Position numbers and translations under genes: made by a program. A stretch of 64,000 nucleotides of DNA from an uncultured Spirochaetota bacterium (lineage in GTDB: Bacteria; Spirochaetota; Brevinematia; Brevinematales; JAOACQ01), in the NCBI GenBank assembly GCA_963783575.1, contig CAWAOD010000005.1, forward strand, positions 32,001 to 96,000, given 5' to 3'. Of this stretch, positions 1 to 7,315 are shown piece after piece. The notes under the pieces are model-generated. The model had not been told where the DNA came from and did no database searches. It was given only the letters and a program-made list of their open reading frames with translations. Each line of letters begins with the position of its first letter. Position 1 is the stretch's first letter.

Positions 1-14
1 TTCTTGACGAGAAA

Positions 15-509
15 ATGCTTTTTATCCGAAACGGCAAAGGTAAAAAGGATAGAATCCTTCCGCTCGGTGAAACGGCTTTAAAATATCTTGCGGAATATAT
101 CAAGAAAATCAGGCCGAAAAAGGCAATACAGCCTATTAGAAAATATCGAACCGGTAAATTATTCCTCGGTAACTTTGGAAAGGCTCTATCAACCGGCGGC
201 TTAAGCGGCATTATCCGCAAGATCAAGGATGCGCAGGGATTTACAAAAACTATTTACCCTCACATAATCCGCCATTCCTTCGCAACGCATCTGCTCAACG
301 CCGGTGCGGATATCCGGGAAGTCCAGCTTCTTTTAGGGCATACAAGCCTTGATTCAACACAGATTTATTTGAACCTTTCAACGGCCTATTTAAAAGAAAT
401 TTATCGGAAATATCATCCGTTAGAAAATGAATTGTATTTTGATGTATTATCAAGAGAAAGCTATATTTTTGAATGGAAATTATTTGATAAAAAGATGCCG
501 GATGGTTAA
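15..509 (+). CDS. XerC/XerD-like tyrosine recombinase, C-terminal part (gene begins before the window)
   Basis: GKGKKDR, HIIRHSFATHLL (HxxR), LLGH..L..TQIY catalytic motifs. Confidence 0.93.
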   Translation: MLFIRNGKGKKDRILPLGETALKYLAEYIKKIRPKKAIQPIRKYRTGKLFLGNFGKALSTGGLSGIIRKIKDAQGFTKTIYPHIIRHSFATHLLNAGADIREVQLLLGHTSLDSTQIYLNLSTAYLKEIYRKYHPLENELYFDVLSRESYIFEWKLFDKKMPDG

Positions 510-531
510 AATACTTAAGTAGGAGAAAAAA

Positions 532-801
532 ATGATTACAGAATACAAAGTGGCGGAAGCTAAAGAAAATCTGGATCAGCTTCTGGATATGGCCAATTCG
601 AGCCATGTACCGATTAAAATCATAAGGAAGAAATCTCCTTCCGCTTATGTTATATCGGAAGACGATTATGATTCGCTTGAAGAAACTCTTTATCTTCTTA
701 GTAATCCGGCTAATGCGGCGCATTTGAGAAGATCGATAAAAAGCAAAAAGAGAGTCCGGTTTAATTCCTTAGAGGATTTGAAGCATGAAATTGGACTTTA
801 G
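532..801 (+). CDS. yefM: Phd/YefM family antitoxin
   Basis: AKENLDQLL N-terminus, YDSLEETLYLLSNPANAAHLRRSI; overlaps toxin gene. Confidence 0.92.
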   Translation: MITEYKVAEAKENLDQLLDMANSSHVPIKIIRKKSPSAYVISEDDYDSLEETLYLLSNPANAAHLRRSIKSKKRVRFNSLEDLKHEIGL

Positions 802-1042
802 CAGCGAGGCTTTCAGCGATTTGCATGAATGGATAATTACGGAAAAGAAGAAAGCTTCAAAAATCATGGATTTAATAGCCGATATACAAAAGCATCCGTT
901 TGAAGGGATCGGAAAGCCTGAACCGCTCAAATATGAATGGTCCGGTTATTGGTCAAGAAGAATCGATGGTGAGCATCGTCTTGTTTACAGGATAAAGGGA
1001 GACGCCATCGAAATTGCATCTTGTAAATATCATTACAGTTAA
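785..1042 (+). CDS. yoeB: Txe/YoeB family mRNA interferase toxin
   Basis: PFEGIGKPEPLK...WSRRIDGEHRLVY...CKYHY signature. Confidence 0.95.
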   Translation: MKLDFSSEAFSDLHEWIITEKKKASKIMDLIADIQKHPFEGIGKPEPLKYEWSGYWSRRIDGEHRLVYRIKGDAIEIASCKYHYS

Positions 1043-1057
1043 TTGAGGTAGGCGAAG

Positions 1058-1234
1058 ATGAAATCTATTGATCCGATTGTAGAAGAAATGACGAATGCCG
1101 GGAAGAAAATACAGGAAGAATGCGGAAACGATTGGGACAAATTCGCTGAAAGGATTCAGGAGAATGAAAAGAAATTGAAGGCTGAAGGCTGGAAATTTGC
1201 CTACTTAAAACCACAGCGTAGAAAAGCCAGTTAA
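1058..1234 (+). CDS. 58-aa small protein MKSIDPIVEEM..., possibly an orphan antitoxin-like protein (below the ORF-track cutoff)
   Basis: GAGG RBS upstream; open from ATG 1058 to TAA 1234. Confidence 0.6.
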   Translation: MKSIDPIVEEMTNAGKKIQEECGNDWDKFAERIQENEKKLKAEGWKFAYLKPQRRKAS

Positions 1235-1235
1235 T

Positions 1236-2249
1236 ATGAATCAGTCGACCTATGTAATCTGCCGAAACGCTGCTTTAATACTTTTGTACACCGTGGCCAA
1301 GTCGAAGGCTATAAAAGCGAAACAAGCGGCTCTGGCCATGGAGTGTACAAAAGCGAAGCGGGGGAAAGCGGCCGCTAAAAAAGCCGCAACTCTCATGGGG
1401 TTTACAGGGAGTAGTTCCCCCAGTTCACTACAGGGGAATACTCCAAATATAGAACCAACATCTTTGCATACAGGCAATTATGCGAATGATTATGGAGCTA
1501 ATATAAATCCAATTACAGGTTCAGTAAATTATGCAAATGATTATAATGCTCCGATAAACCCGAATTATACGGATAATCCAACAAATTACAGGGACACTTC
1601 CTGGCATGGACAGGAAAGCCTTGATAAGGTAAATGATGCATATCAAGACTTTAAGAATCAATACAAAAATGGTAAAATACCTTTCAATAGTTTAACTTAT
1701 GACAGTATTAAAGACTTTGCTGATGATCATAATATGACCGATGCGGAAAGGCTTTATTTCACAGAAAGAATTGCCCATGATAATCCTGAATTTTATTCAA
1801 ATACTAAACTTGCCTATATTGGGACATTCCCAGAGTTAAAAACTCAAACATATTGTGATCGGTACGCATCTTATGTAACCAAGATATATACTGGAAATTC
1901 AGATTTGGAAGCCGCAGGTCATTGGGGTGTACCGTATGCGAATCAATATTTTCAAGATAATTCATATAATACTTATAACGTATCACATGGACAAGATATG
2001 CAAGAGATGGCAAATTTTGGTAAATTGACGTATGCTTCTGATTCAGGACATATAATTGTTATTTCACCTGGAAATGGAAAATGGTCAGAAGATATTTACA
2101 CAATAGGTGAAGAAGATATGCAAGTTTATTTACCTGCTATTGCCCAACAAGGGAGAGATAACTACTTAAATGGTTTAGGCGGAAATTATAACTTACGTAA
2201 TGCTTATAAACCAATTCAAATACCAAATATAATTTATTATAACAAATAG
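1236..2249 (+). CDS. Orphan polymorphic-toxin C-terminal cassette with a putative papain/CHAP-like amidase domain; the first ~55 codons are probably a non-coding hairpin
   Basis: TYCDRYASYV (Cys) and SGHIIVI (His) motifs; low-complexity linker; followed by an exported AT-rich gene. Confidence 0.55.
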   Translation: MNQSTYVICRNAALILLYTVAKSKAIKAKQAALAMECTKAKRGKAAAKKAATLMGFTGSSSPSSLQGNTPNIEPTSLHTGNYANDYGANINPITGSVNYANDYNAPINPNYTDNPTNYRDTSWHGQESLDKVNDAYQDFKNQYKNGKIPFNSLTYDSIKDFADDHNMTDAERLYFTERIAHDNPEFYSNTKLAYIGTFPELKTQTYCDRYASYVTKIYTGNSDLEAAGHWGVPYANQYFQDNSYNTYNVSHGQDMQEMANFGKLTYASDSGHIIVISPGNGKWSEDIYTIGEEDMQVYLPAIAQQGRDNYLNGLGGNYNLRNAYKPIQIPNIIYYNK

Positions 2250-2270
2250 TGATGGAAGGAGCGAATTATT

Positions 2271-3152
2271 ATGAAAAGATATATTTTAATATCTTTACTG
2301 ATATTATTTTGCTTAAATATAAATCTCCTATATAGCCAAAAAGTAATAAATTATCAGAGAATAATTGAATTTTCCGAAAATCAATGGGGTCATGGATTTG
2401 TTATTTCAGCAGACAATTCATTTTTAATTAGTATTTCAGAACATAGTGATAAGAAAGGGTTGAATTGGATTTATTGGTATAAAGATGGAGAAATTACAAA
2501 AAAAATTGATAACGCAATGTTTGGTTCTACAAGTCCTGATGGTAAGTATTATGCTTATATTAATAAAAAGAATGTTTACATATTTAAAAATGATGATACT
2601 CTAATTAATAAATTTGAATTTAAAGGAATGTTATACAAATATATGTGGGATTATAATTCTAATTTCATATTTACAATTGAATTAGTTAACAATCTTTATA
2701 AGATAATTAGATTTGATTTTTTAAATAATAGAAAAGAGGAGATATTAAGTTCATCAAATTATTTTTATCCAATTCCTGTAAAATCAAAAGATATTTTATA
2801 TTTATTGAAAAATTATAATTTTTCAGATAACTCCACAGAAGATTACAAAATAGTAAAATATAATATTAATACAAAAATATTCAATGAAATACATTTACCC
2901 GATGAGAATTATAATATCTTGAATTCATTTACAATATCACCAGATGAAAAATTCATTGTTTATGTAGATAAGAATGACTTAAATATGAATATTATTGAAG
3001 TTAATGAAAAAAAAGTCATCATTAGATTTAAAGTTAATGATTTTCCTGAGAGTTTTAGTTGGGAGTCAAATGATTTATTTTTCATATTTTCTATGGATAA
3101 TAGAGGTATAGATAAATTCAATATGCAAGATTATTTGAAGCCGATAGAATAA
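2271..3152 (+). CDS. Exported beta-propeller (TolB/WD40-like) protein, candidate immunity protein
   Basis: Signal peptide; repeated SPDGK/SPDEK/SADNS blade motifs; very AT-rich; directly after the toxin-like ORF. Confidence 0.6.
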   Translation: MKRYILISLLILFCLNINLLYSQKVINYQRIIEFSENQWGHGFVISADNSFLISISEHSDKKGLNWIYWYKDGEITKKIDNAMFGSTSPDGKYYAYINKKNVYIFKNDDTLINKFEFKGMLYKYMWDYNSNFIFTIELVNNLYKIIRFDFLNNRKEEILSSSNYFYPIPVKSKDILYLLKNYNFSDNSTEDYKIVKYNINTKIFNEIHLPDENYNILNSFTISPDEKFIVYVDKNDLNMNIIEVNEKKVIIRFKVNDFPESFSWESNDLFFIFSMDNRGIDKFNMQDYLKPIE

Positions 3153-3180
3153 AGCTTCCCGGTTTTTTTATTTTCTCCTT

Positions 3181-3340
3181 TAGAGCATCCAAACCGGAGC
3201 AAAAAGGGAGGAATTCCGAGCAAAAAGCTTCGAAGTCGGAGCTCAGAGGTCGGAATTTGGAGTAAAAAGCCCCGGTGTCGAAGCTCTGAACTAGGAAACC
3301 TGAGTAAAAAGCTTCGGCTTCGAGACTCGGAACTCCGGTT
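3181..3340. repeat. Degenerate 7/21-nt periodic tandem repeat
   Basis: GAG(C/T)AAAAAG recurs at 3197, 3218, 3260 and 3302 (spacing 21, 42, 42). Confidence 0.7.
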
Positions 3341-3533
3341 TACACATTAGCAAAATCTGACGGCAAAGCGAGAGCATGAAGAAAGTAGAAAGATTTTATT
3401 CAAGCCTCGTCAGCCCCATTCCTTACAAAACTGGCAGGCTCGCCGTCTCACACTGCCAGTTTTTCCAGTCAGGGGCATTCCTCGGCTTGCGCGCTCTATT
3501 GGCGGAAGTCAGAGGCAACCGAACCCGCTGACG

Positions 3534-3561
3534 CTTTAACATAATTGTTCTTATGGTCAGG
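3534..3561 (-). other. dif-like Xer recombination site
   Basis: Minus strand CCTGACCATAA-GAACAA-TTATGTTAAAG; 11-6-11 layout; XerD arm matches TTATGTTAAAT at 10/11. Confidence 0.75.
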
Positions 3562-3773
3562 CCGGGGGGCGAAATCCTCCGCTCCCCAGCAGCATCTGAA
3601 GCGAATCTGAAGAAAAAGTCCAGGATTTTGGACTAATAAAAGAGACATAAAAAGGAATGGACAGAGAGGGAAATTAGGAATGTGGTTATTGGAATAAGGC
3701 GAATAAAAGAAAGGAAGAGGAATGGAAGGCAGCAAAAATATCCATATTGTCTTATTTAACTTTAATAATTTTC

Positions 3774-5027
3774 TTAATATTGGCATATAGGACAAGCGGC
3801 GAGACGATTTTCATGGATTCTTTGCAAACGGGCTTGTTCGAAACCGGATTGAATGGAAATAAAATCAGGTTTTTTACCAAAGTAAGCTTCGGCAGGAGTC
3901 TGGTATTTATGAGCATGGTGAGGCCGGACATGATTATATTCCTGGACTGCTGTTTCAAGATACCTTTCAAGTTCCTTAAGGTCATGAAATTTGGAACGCA
4001 AAAGCCAGGAATACTTGAGGGTTTTATTGACAGCTTCGATCATACTGTTTGAAAAATGAATATCTTTCAAAGCTATCAAATGTCTGATAGAGATTTTATC
4101 TTTAAGAAATTGTTTAATGAGGTCATTATCATTTTCAGTACCGCCATCCGTCAGAAATATGATATATGAATCAATATGTTCGGTAAAATTTCTGAAAATT
4201 TTATCATAGGATTCCTTCAGGTTGGAAAGAGCTATATCTGCAGATAGTGAAAGAGAAACTTTGTAAGAAATGATAAAACGTGAAAAATTATCAATGAGAA
4301 TATAGATGTAGGCTGTGAGTCCGTTAAGGAGTTTCAGGCAGGTAACATCGGCGTGGATGACCTCATTGGGAAAGGAAGCCCGGATTCCTTTTTCATAGCG
4401 GGGTTTTTTAATGATGAAGCGCTTAAACCCAAGAAGTTTTGAGTATTTATAGAAGGAATCGCGGCAGATAAAAAGCCTTTTTTTTCTGACAGATTCTGAA
4501 TGGATGGAATGAACAGACCACTTATGATATGCTGGATCAAATAAGATATTTTTCATTTCATAAAGTTCTCTTTGTGAAATCTGATTAGGCCAGACTTTTG
4601 GACATTTATGTATGGGCGAGATTAGGCACTTTGTTTTAAGAAGAAAGAATTTACAGGCTCTTTCAATGGTAAGTTTGAAACGGTTAACAAGGAAATAAAC
4701 GGCTTTTACGGTAATATCCTGAATTTTATCAAGATACCCGGCAGGTTTATGAATAAGCAGGTATTGTATTTTATTTTTAAAGGAATATACATGAACAATA
4801 ATCCTGGTCATTAATAGTAATGATTTTGAGGATGAGACGGTTTTAAAAAGGGGCATAAATTTGGATTCGAATTCCCTGTATTCTAGTCCAAAAAGAGAGG
4901 AAAGGTCGTAATTCATAAGATGATAATAGGATGATTTTGAAATATTATCGCGGATGGATTCATAATTTAAAAGGCCAAGCTGCAGAGCGAGTGTAAAACT
5001 ATGATCATATTTTCTTATGAAACGCAT
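3774..5027 (-). mobile_element. DDE integrase-core (rve) transposase, IS3/IS481-like; element ends not resolved
   Basis: IHADVT, LIDNFSR, LTDGGTEN, IEAVNKTLK, YNHVRPH motifs. Confidence 0.85.
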
Positions 5028-5567
5028 ATAAAGTCCTTATTCATTTAATTTAATAAAAAATGATAATGTAAAAGACAGGCTATAGTCAATATGACTTTGG
5101 TTACATTTTGATGTGACGTCTGTCATATTTTTAGAATGATAAAAATGTGACAAATATCATATTGACAATCGGGGTATTTGTAGGATATAATAATTCCGTA
5201 ATGGTAACAAATGTTAATAGAATTAAGGCAGCTTGTACAACCAAATGCGCAGGCACACGTCTCCGGTTGCTTACGGAGCTTCTTCTAAGGCGTACACGAT
5301 GTACGCCGCTGAGCGCGGATGAGGCAGGATGCCGAATCGCGCGATTACGCAGTAAGCAAGCGGAGACGTGTGCCGGAGCAGTTGATGGAAAAGGGGGGAT
5401 ACTACTACTAGACAGGGCGGGACATAGCACAAAAAACTGAACAAGAAAAATGATGCCCGTAGGATGGAAAAAAGAGCTTTAAGAATAAACCTGGGTGGGA
5501 TCGGTATAGGGTGCCCTGTAAAGTCCCCAAAATTGCTTTAATTATTTTTCTTTTACAAGGCTTTCGA

Positions 5568-5691
5568 AGCGCGGCGTCCGAAACGGCACACTTTCCAGAG
5601 CGGCCAGGGACGGCCGCGGGCCGGAGATCTGTCCGAAGCAGGATGCAAGTTTACGGAGGCCTGGAAAGTGTGCCGTTTCGGACGCCGCGCT
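5568..5691. repeat. Perfect 31-bp inverted repeat with 62-nt spacer
   Basis: AGCGCGGCGTCCGAAACGGCACACTTTCCAG (5568-5598) and its exact reverse complement (5661-5691). Confidence 0.95.
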
Positions 5692-6384
5692 CGACAGCAA
5701 CCCGCGCTCTCGCGCGATTATGTCGGTGCGGCCAGCGGAGCAATCGGCGGAGCGCTTAGAGGCATGATGAGCGGCGTTGATATGGGACAGGCGGGATCGA
5801 CTGTATACGGCGGTGTAAGCGGATCAATAGGCGCTTATAGCGGATATAATCAACAGAAAGCCGCTGAAGCTGCTCATAGGGATAACGCTCAGAACGAAAT
5901 GGCTGATAATTACAGAAAGAACAATGAAGATATGATGTATGATTACAAAAGGGCTAAGTTTGAACAGGGATTAACACAGCCGATAGGTTATATGATTGGT
6001 GAAACTACTGCAGGGATAAGGACTGTGAGCAACACATCAAATTTACCGCCTGAATATCGTGTACGTGATACTGAAACATATAATTATGGCTTTGCTAGCG
6101 GATCACCGGGGGATCCTCGAATAATAACTGTTGGTGGAGTTGGAGATAATAAACAGTATTTAGATACTACCACTTTGCTGAACAATGATAATTATAAAAA
6201 ATTGGTCGAAGAAAAGCCAATGAAAATGCAAGAAATACTGCACGAAAGAGAAATGAATGAGAGTAATTATAATGAAAGGATATATTCGACGAAAAATTGG
6301 CGGAATACCGAAAATAAATTGAATGCTGCAATGGCTCAAATTGATACTAATATAAACGGTCAAAAAATGGCCGGCGGCGGTTGA
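5668..6384 (+). pseudogene. Start-less polymorphic-toxin (Rhs-like) C-terminal fragment
   Basis: Gly/Ala/Ser-rich GAASGAIGGA...GGVSGSIGA pre-toxin-like segment begins right after the hairpin; no credible RBS or start codon. Confidence 0.5.
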
Positions 6385-6694
6385 TTAATCAATGATATTG
6401 CAAATGTGCTGCAGCAAAAGGGGATTGATTTTTCACCACAAGATATAGACAGGCTTGCTGATGAAAATGATTGTTATATATATAAAAACAAAATCCTTGA
6501 TATTATAAGAACAATCCCATTTTTTGTAATAAGCATTGTTACCAACTTCTGGAAATGGGTTTTTCGGGGCTCTTCTGAATGATGGTTTGTGTGAACTGGA
6601 CTGATCTGTGCAAAAGAAATATTGACACTTTTTGTAAAAGTTCTTATAGAGGAGCCATTTTCGATAGTAACTCAAGCTCTCGAGCAATTCACCT

Positions 6695-7315
6695 TTAAAA
6701 ATATCCCTGCAGCAGGATTAATTTGAAAAAAGGAAGTTGAGTCATGGGAATATAAATAAAAAAAGCTGCTTCCATAAAAGGCAGGAAAGGTATTCTTTCC
6801 TTTTTTTTATAAACAACAAGGCGGATAAGCCCGTAGCATAAGGCAAATATAGCCGCCAAAAATCCTATGATGAAAACCGAATGTGGCATAACCAGAAGAC
6901 TCAGTCCTGTAAAAATCGCAACATCTCCAAGGCCCAGACCTCTGCCTTTTGTTATGATAAATGGTATCAGGAGAAAAAGCAGGCCTGATATAACCGCAAT
7001 TAAATTCGATATAAAAGGCAGAACTATTAAAACTCTCAATAATATTACCGGTATTAAAAATATTATAATTGAGAAAATCGAAACAGCTTGAAATTTTATA
7101 TCATAAATACTTAAGAAATTTAAAACAATGAATAAAAGCCAGTAGAGCAAAAAAATCTGAATAGGAATAAATTTATAAAAATAATAAAAGGCTGTTGAAA
7201 ACGCCATCAAAAAAATGATTATTGTAATTCGGTTTATCCTGTAAATATAAAAATAGGTTAAATAGGATACAATTAAAAATCCGGCTGATAAAAGTATTTT
7301 CAACAGCATTTTCAA
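6695..7315 (-). CDS. A24 family prepilin peptidase-like membrane protein
   Basis: IYD, GLGLGDV and IPFLPF motifs; multiple TM segments. Confidence 0.8.
   Translation of the reverse strand: MKMLLKILLSAGFLIVSYLTYFYIYRINRITIIIFLMAFSTAFYYFYKFIPIQIFLLYWLLFIVLNFLSIYDIKFQAVSIFSIIIFLIPVILLRVLIVLPFISNLIAVISGLLFLLIPFIITKGRGLGLGDVAIFTGLSLLVMPHSVFIIGFLAAIFALCYGLIRLVVYKKKERIPFLPFMEAAFFIYIPMTQLPFFKLILLQGYF

Follow-up and report, generated by a model that had tools for sequence, protein, structure and literature searches.

How the C-terminal toxin tips of Rhs and contact-dependent growth inhibition (CDI) proteins move, and how they are replaced without loss of the old tip, has been unsolved since Jackson et al. 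(2009; PMC2935791), who postulated a circular carrier and were aware of no integrase at Rhs loci. The question is raised again by a locus of an uncultured Spirochaetota bacterium, in which a toxin tip lacking its Rhs body lies behind a tyrosine recombinase and a toxin-antitoxin (TA) pair. The window investigated here is a stretch of 64,000 nt (G000:C5:32001-96000), where G000 stands for the genome under study (4.9 Mb) and C5, C15 and so on for its contigs. A previous sequence-only reading of this DNA regarded the locus as a candidate shuffling system, in which motif-plus-hairpin units let the recombinase exchange toxin tips, and advised a search upstream for a second recombinase and a full-length Rhs gene. 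Both were found, the recombinase directly upstream of the window and the Rhs gene on another contig (C15). The recombinase, the TA pair and the first tip most likely constitute one system with toxin-tip exchange as its probable role, as that reading had it, whereas the sites it proposed are not supported. We conclude that the system is probably an integrative element that uses the Rhs 3′ region as an in-frame target, re-arming Rhs and displacing the old tip.

The element occurs as a repeated unit. Upstream of the window and on C15 the gene order is a helix-turn-helix (HTH) repressor gene on the opposite strand, an open reading frame (ORF) of about 90 amino acids (aa), ParA, primase, recombinases 1 and 2 and a TA pair, followed in each unit by a non-coding end block, a start-less ORF and a partner gene. 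Five recombinase pairs exist in all, two on C15 and three on C5, and the junctions are spaced by 11.6–19.6 kb where one contig holds both ends. Unit 5, the end of which enters the window, comprises upstream on C5 an HTH repressor, a 91-aa ORF, ParA, a 912-aa CHC2/Toprim primase and a 419-aa recombinase 1. The catalytic motifs of recombinase 2 (R-H-R-H-Y) are intact in all five units, as are boxes I and III of recombinase 1, whose box II was read in one unit. The primases (~910 aa) carry a P-loop in their C-terminal half, which would be helicase-like. Between units, recombinase 1 is 82–90%, recombinase 2 83–90% and the primase 64–89% identical; units 3 and 4 have both recombinases identical and share 98.6% identity over 5.8 kb. 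The slot after the recombinases, occupied by YefM/YoeB in unit 5, holds other TA-like genes in other units, and the cargo between partner gene and HTH gene varies as well (TA genes, a radical SAM gene, a GHKL-ATPase gene, reverse-transcriptase-like ORFs). No phage genes were seen among the unit genes scanned. Four reverse-transcriptase-like ORFs lie in the unit cargo (C5:19948-23724 and C15:14037-19404), one of them 98% identical between two units; their motifs suggest the group II intron type.

The array on C15 is headed by an intact Rhs gene (C15:48116-36855) encoding 3,753 aa (PF05593 with E 3e-107; TIGR03696 above cut-off). It shows the YD-repeat with the PxxxxDPxG core end, of which this is the single instance found in G000. 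Both C15 and C5 end within a primase, with an overlap of 76.5% over 341 bp, and the two contigs likely form one continuous array.

All five unit ends, together with two ends in the same-genus genome G001, have a site of ~45 bp in common, with the consensus GGGT.TAcAGGGAg.Aga.CCCCCA.ttC...AcaGG.GAAT. A scan of the genome returned these five sites, then one remnant on C13 and then background. The left part of the site is confined to element ends, whereas its right part is also present in the intact Rhs gene: relative to the junction, the intact gene and the element ends are 15–26% identical over −30 to −4, which means unrelated, in contrast to 60–90% over −3 to +26. Between unrelated tips the identity is 57–83% over −3 to +26 and falls to 17–42% after +27. 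These shared ~25 bp are too short for ordinary homologous recombination. All seven element junctions tested (five in G000, two in G001) open in frame into tips of 171–276 codons, and the four tip types are mutually unrelated past +27. With a profile from which the tip family of the intact gene had been omitted, the window site ranked fourth and the intact Rhs site sixth of 9,823,632 positions. The sites of the array, i.e. the five junctions and the right half in the intact gene, are all direct repeats in array orientation.

Some further observations concern the element ends. The remnant on C13 (C13:136800-136060, minus strand) is a lone element end with recombinase tail, TA pair and junction site but no tip; its neighbours are a response regulator and a host gene. 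The hexamer CATGGG recurs right before the junction (window 1394-1399; L135:2019-2036) in G000, G001 and the genomes G011 and G344 despite differing Rhs targets; in the window and in G344 the ATG within it shares the reading frame of the tip. Two homologous element ends read TTGAAA or TTTTAA-16-TATAAT, so that the end block possibly holds an outward promoter. The G001 Rhs does not carry the core at its PISP motif; the DNA match there exists at codon level only.

Tip 1, the orphan in the window, is 73% identical to the last 275 residues of the intact Rhs, and the protein encoded behind it (window 2271-3152) is 29% identical to the product of the partner gene behind the intact Rhs. At each of the five G000 junctions the tip is followed by a gene of 203–408 codons; one tip is split over two frames. 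All four partner genes inspected have a signal-peptide-like start, as would be expected for immunity against cell-wall enzymes, and one unit tip is an M23 peptidase (E 3e-16). The Cys/His motifs of tip 1 hint weakly at a CHAP/Tae-like cell-wall amidase. CHAP was matched with E 0.005 by a homolog of tip 1 only, and the Atlas leads for tip 1 were Tae4 (0.88) and CHAP (0.87). The predicted folds of tip 1 are poor (pLDDT 41.5 and 43.5); with these models Foldseek gave no match at E ≤ 0.001, and a wide fold search with a poor model stayed at Z ≤ 3.5 with Tse1 on top. A PDB sequence search with tip 1 returned 0 matches.

Relatives in Escherichia coli provide the empty and filled states of such a target. 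Recombinase plus end occur in 56 of 5,426 complete E. coli genomes, of which ten loci were opened. In eight of these loci all 12 xerC-like genes are followed by the element end, which abuts the GA(C/T)CCG of the DPIG motif. The element is absent from the locus L177, where rhs terminates in the same tip and immunity gene as lie behind a 7,789-bp element in L178. This element is bounded by 15-bp repeats, and the switch falls inside those 15 bp: upstream, L177 matches the L178 rhs until 15 bp beyond GACCCG, and its match to the displaced tip of L178, which starts at GACCCG, covers 1,354 bp without mismatch. Further, a 5.2-kb stretch from tip to primase is fused to rhs in L171 (ansP locus) and occurs as an orphan in L172 (kdp locus) with 95.6% identity. 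The E. coli primase shares 33% identity over 907 aa with that of the window family, the recombinase 31% and 26% with the two window-type recombinases. The pair L175/L173 (one versus two units) fits site-specific loss and homologous recombination alike and was not counted as evidence.

Close homologs of the window recombinases were found in G001 only (2 of 61 and 2 of 401 genomes, G000 counted), in which the order behind an Rhs ortholog is again partner gene, unit, tip, partner. Primase matches occur more widely, in 15 of 401 genomes of the phylum. Among the 13 of these other than G000 and G001, an Rhs core lies ≤3 kb behind the recombinases in six and upstream in one, two have long-homology orphans of another large protein, and four show neither, in part on short contigs. 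In G344 six orphans, each preceded by the same element end, begin at the identical Rhs core base, and the intact gene matches from that base; the units there are near-identical. Two orphans of G011 share a single start point in the repeat region, where they are 73–75% identical to the intact gene. Also in G011 (L137-L138), two units behind Rhs form a back-to-back inverted repeat of 6.7 kb, one tip with its partner being an inverted copy of that of the intact gene. The fixed position in Rhs differs between lineages.

In Proteobacteria and other spirochaetes the unit layout was found behind cdiA in Enterobacter, behind rhs in E. coli and behind large toxin-like genes in Janthinobacterium, Providencia and Leptospira; the orphans of Providencia and Janthinobacterium show no DNA match to their upstream genes. 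The site in Lonsdalea consists of 8-bp inverted arms around 6 bp of DPIG codons (GA(C/T)CCG). Circular records of relatives (8.8 kb and 11.3 kb) have the gene content predicted for a circle and may be collapsed tandem repeats. Three small records filed as plasmids, L164 (NZ_CP072857.1), L165 (NZ_CP055112.1) and L166 (NZ_CP091935.1), carry solely element genes, as true circles or collapsed tandem repeats. A metagenome scan yielded chiefly host-type Xer genes, with a primase at 2 of 80 loci, and viral contigs gave four loci, none of them informative and none a circle. No close full-length Rhs relative was present among the 2,171 candidates scored. The model NF002331 matched nowhere, controls included. 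In a tree of 33 proteins the element recombinases all fall outside the host-Xer group (95/94). Two Leptospira/Providencia rows were left out of alignment A2.

Taken together, we propose the following course of events. A unit would consist of tip, immunity gene, cargo, HTH repressor, small ORF, ParA, primase/helicase-like gene, recombinases 1 and 2, TA pair and end block. In its circular form the end block would be joined to the unit's own tip, resulting in an attP-like site. The recombinases would then cross this site with the matching in-frame site, located ~340 codons downstream of the DPxG in Rhs. By this, the Rhs body would gain a new tip together with its immunity gene, and the previous pair would be displaced intact behind the right end of the element. 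Repeated insertion would let the stack grow, and excision between any two sites would restore a downstream tip. The role of the TA pair would be to stabilise the unit, and that of primase and ParA to maintain the circle; expression of the displaced immunity gene may continue from an outward promoter within the end block. That these recombinases perform the crossing, at which exact bases they do so, that the circle replicates and passes between cells and that the tips are active toxins is inferred.

Several points weigh against this proposal. In this genome, with no sequencing run listed for window 1-3300, no circle or scar was seen, and the likely join of C15 to C5 rests on the 341-bp overlap of 76.5%. 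No empty target allele was found in the window lineage, where G001 is the only close genome. The best site in the G001 Rhs reaches 8.8 bits, which is not significant, although the proposal expects a good right half there. The margin of the profile is thin, the best unrelated position scoring 23.0 compared to 25.4. The window-type site shows no conserved dyad (inner 6-bp match 1–5 of 6), and the intact gene carries the core twice, offset by 12 bp. Three tips, those of the intact gene, the unit 1 end and the window, are 88–100% identical over 360 bp, which is enough for homologous recombination. Among the other primase genomes just 6 of 13 have the Rhs core within 3 kb behind the recombinases, with several contigs ending early, and Leptospira-like members have long-homology orphans. 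Finally, the window recombinases do not group firmly in the 33-protein tree with the clade of single recombinases to which the E. coli enzyme belongs. The E. coli result therefore carries over by layout and primase homology and not by proven orthology.

Of the alternatives, the one that survives best assumes that RecA-type homologous recombination and tandem duplication change the tips, the units having been inserted once at a fixed site and passively copied since then. The near-identity of units 3 and 4 over 5.8 kb (98.6%) and of the units in G344 fits such copying, as does the 360 bp shared by three tips. E. coli arrays also contain orphans with at least 480 bp of core homology, and the Leptospira-like orphans share 193–1,704 aa with the intact gene. 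In contrast, just ~25 bp behind the junction are common to four unrelated tips, and the primase divergence between backbones reaches 36%. Orphans begin at one base even where they are 73–75% identical to the intact gene, and the fixed Rhs position differs by lineage. We consider this alternative unlikely.

The second alternative concerns the surroundings of tip 1, for which the features of the window are required:

1..509, plus strand: 3′ part of recombinase 2 of unit 5, a tyrosine recombinase of 335 aa that begins 498 bp before the window; catalytic motifs intact
532..801, plus strand: YefM/Phd antitoxin (PF02604, E 7.8e-19)
785..1042, plus strand: YoeB toxin (PF06769, E 2.7e-33)
1058..1234, plus strand: 58-aa ORF, no family match
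1236..1416, plus strand: element right end, non-toxin, 50% GC, containing the motif of the sequence-only reading (1253-1279) and hairpin 1 (1281-1353)
1394..1439, plus strand: conserved junction of element and tip, proposed as recombination site, with the core CCCCCAG (1417-1423)
1419..2249, plus strand: tip 1, orphan Rhs C-terminal toxin, 276 aa counted from the junction
2271..3152, plus strand: predicted immunity protein, 293 aa, with signal-peptide-like start and weak beta-propeller matches
3188..3331, plus strand: four degenerate 42-bp tandem repeats behind the immunity gene, single locus in the genome
3535..3560, plus strand: dif-like site (sequence pattern)
3774..5027, minus strand: insertion sequence transposase with integrase core (rve), single copy
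5162..5191, plus strand: perfect sigma-70 consensus promoter
5242..5384, strand undefined: GC-rich palindrome with 33-nt arms, similar to repetitive extragenic palindromes
5568..5691, strand undefined: hairpin 2, perfect 31-nt arms (5568-5598/5661-5691), not an element end
5716..6384, plus strand: tip 2, remnant of a different toxin C-terminus, with a glycine-rich pre-toxin part and a variable part

Dif-like sites (TTWACATAA-N6-TTAT(C/G)GTCA) lie on either side of the cargo between immunity and HTH genes in most units, frequently as inverted pairs (window 3535-3560; C15:35516, 33632, 3497 and 2546; C5:8888 and 24786). They could bound the mobile unit in the manner of pdif modules or integrative mobile elements exploiting Xer recombination (IMEX), moved by host XerCD or by the element recombinases; the tip would then stand at the right end and the 45-bp junction would be internal or a relic. 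Such sites are present in 5 of 6 G000 spacers examined and 3 of 3 in G001, host-type XerC/XerD genes lie on C6 and C9, and the poor right half in the G001 Rhs is in accordance with this idea. However, the loci of G344, G011, G233, G285 and G198 have no such sites, and the spacer of unit 2 lacks one by the pattern used. In the empty/filled pair of E. coli the tip stands at the left end and the breakpoints fall on the Rhs site, and the single register of unrelated tips is left unexplained. A dif-bounded unit is quite improbable. A candidate chromosomal dif lies at C14:285668.

The observations from which the sequence-only reading started were partly confirmed. The 3′ end of the tyrosine recombinase (1-509), YefM, YoeB and the dif-like site at 3535-3560 are all present, both toxin-like ORFs are C-terminal fragments of polymorphic toxins, and GC-rich blocks (50% and 65%) precede AT-richer coding DNA (33% and 41% GC). 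The motif occurs at 1253 and 5517, and the inverted repeats were confirmed, an imperfect one at 1281-1300/1333-1353 and a perfect one of 31 bp at 5568-5598/5661-5691. The description of the ORFs as start-less needs a correction for ORF 1, which has in-frame ATGs at 1236 and 1395, both within the element end; its homology to the Rhs gene starts at ~1417.

The interpretation of the motif could not be maintained. Its pattern is restricted to these two sites in the 4.9 Mb. Other units have an altered motif or none at their homologous ends, and both motif and hairpin 1 of the element right end vary from unit to unit. In block shuffles of window 1-6600 (n = 60, with no condition set on a following hairpin) a pair made of a shared 9-mer and 5-mer in this spacing appeared in 58 of 60, with a mean of 4.4 such pairs compared to 7 in the real sequence; a similarity beyond chance is not supported. 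Apart from the motif, the two GC-rich blocks show no sequence relation. Hairpin 1 is kept in just 3 of 7 aligned unit ends, and the conserved junction, not the motif-plus-hairpin, is the candidate recombination site, 60–85 bp downstream of hairpin 1.

The second cassette, which had been regarded as part of the same system, stands apart. Tip 2 is without junction site (site score 5.5 bits) and without immunity gene behind it, and its frame runs ~66 codons past an in-frame stop. A single homolog, P0069, was found among 1.84 billion representatives, 62% identical over residues 12–102 and unrelated from there on; tip 2 was not found in G001 or G011, and Atlas gave nothing usable. Judged from these properties, tip 2 is a toxin C-terminal remnant. 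The loop of its hairpin matches a ~150-bp intergenic palindromic repeat at seven other places of G000 (C5:358610, C16:219950, C13:283190, C11:233885, C11:377465, C4:7435 and C9:181830), which adjoin metabolic genes and, often, transposases; by ORF inspection no toxin-like gene lies beside these seven copies. An Rfam match on hairpin 2, to a miRNA precursor only, was judged spurious.

That the motif-plus-hairpin units are attC-like folded sites by which the recombinase captures both cassettes integron-style is very improbable: both hairpins are real and precede toxin fragments, and two homologous ends retain part of hairpin 1, but the motif is at chance level and not conserved, window 1-6700 contains no attC box pair (RYYYAAC...GTTRRRY), no common fold was found across 14 junctions, the integron-integrase model TIGR02249 gave 114.5 and 117.8 bits in two short stretches with a cut-off of 265, and hairpin 2 is a dispersed repeat ahead of a tip without the common junction.

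Two side observations refer to the intact Rhs. It comes after genes of 1,132, 3,446 and 368 codons (C15:64011-36855, minus strand), an order that recurs in G001 and G011; the Rhs protein starts with a signal-peptide-like stretch, and no secretion system was identified. In the window, the stretch 5082-5191 comprises the sigma-70 promoter with TGAC-N4-GTCA-like palindromes before it and is similar to the region before the operon whose last gene is the intact Rhs (C15:64483-64439) and to C6:61872-61931. This similarity points to a possible common operator.

In comparison with known systems, the proposed integrative element resembles gene-inserting satellites in its gene set. P4/phage-inducible chromosomal island (PICI) satellites and integrative and mobilizable elements are small tyrosine-recombinase elements with repressor, primase-type replication gene and integrase. 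Here, in contrast, a polymorphic toxin gene serves as the target, and its 3′ end is not restored as a copy but replaced by a new toxin with its immunity gene; moreover, there are two recombinases and ParA, and no phage genes were seen in the unit. In the shufflon (Rci/sfx) a tyrosine recombinase exchanges in-frame C-terminal segments at short conserved sites, whereas the present sites are direct repeats 11–20 kb apart, each with its own recombinases, for insertion and excision and not inversion. Integrons and recombinase-associated acquired interbacterial defence (rAID) clusters have a recombinase adjoining arrays of modules. Unlike in an integron, attC boxes and an integron-integrase score are missing here and each module has its own backbone. 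A recombinase-in-trio (RIT) element has three adjacent tyrosine recombinases, compared to two per unit here. The inverted dif-like pairs around the cargo of most units are similar to pdif modules and IMEX but lacking in distant arrays that have this layout, and appear to represent a second system at the level of the cargo.

As a precedent for repeated tropism towards one class of genes, with new sites evolving in sub-lineages, the HE-PICIs come closest, as far as described in the part of PMC10111431 covered here. For Rhs loci, the main text of Jackson et al. (2009) describes a circle inserting by a single crossover with the old tip shunted downstream, assumes homologous recombination and notes no integrase; the words primase, recombinase, SymE and Xer are absent from it. 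Poole et al. (2011; PMC3150448) and Koskiniemi et al. (2014; PMC3967940) name no site-specific enzyme in the sections covered. The orphan tip arrays of these three papers, to the same extent, are similar in that an intact Rhs is followed by start-less tips with immunity genes. Here, however, a primase-recombinase backbone precedes each tip, and there is a single fixed start base, ~340 codons downstream of DPxG in G000. The orphans ascribed to homologous recombination in those parts of Jackson 2009 and Koskiniemi 2014 carry long, variable, near-identical core fragments, in contrast to the one register with ~25 bp shared, and 360 bp in one tip family, observed here. Zhang et al. (2012; PMC3482391) mention XerC/D, within the text covered, beside polyimmunity loci only; their Additional File 1 may show such neighbourhoods. 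These loci also have a recombinase beside module arrays, whereas every module here has its own backbone. The element is not described in the covered parts of PMC13183296, PMC11278526, PMC4428218 and PMC7043789, and literature searches gave no description of it by title or abstract start, most subscription papers and supplements being outside their scope. Since the layout is plain in RefSeq annotation, prior notice of the element is quite possible.

A defined element with a short defined site makes the movement of tips directly testable, E. coli included. Many genes annotated as ‘xerC’ and ‘DNA primase’ beside rhs would not be housekeeping genes, and recombinases that join coding sequences in frame would become available. 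More tentatively, and somewhat short of what we would call probable, the units may belong to an undescribed class of self-replicating elements across phyla that is dedicated to re-arming polymorphic toxins, each lineage with its own Rhs-codon site, perhaps also in CdiA and other large toxins; its circle, carrying tip and immunity gene, might be the missing carrier of C-terminal displacement. If this is true, the host would hold a reversible stack of weapons, the order of which is a record of past invasions.

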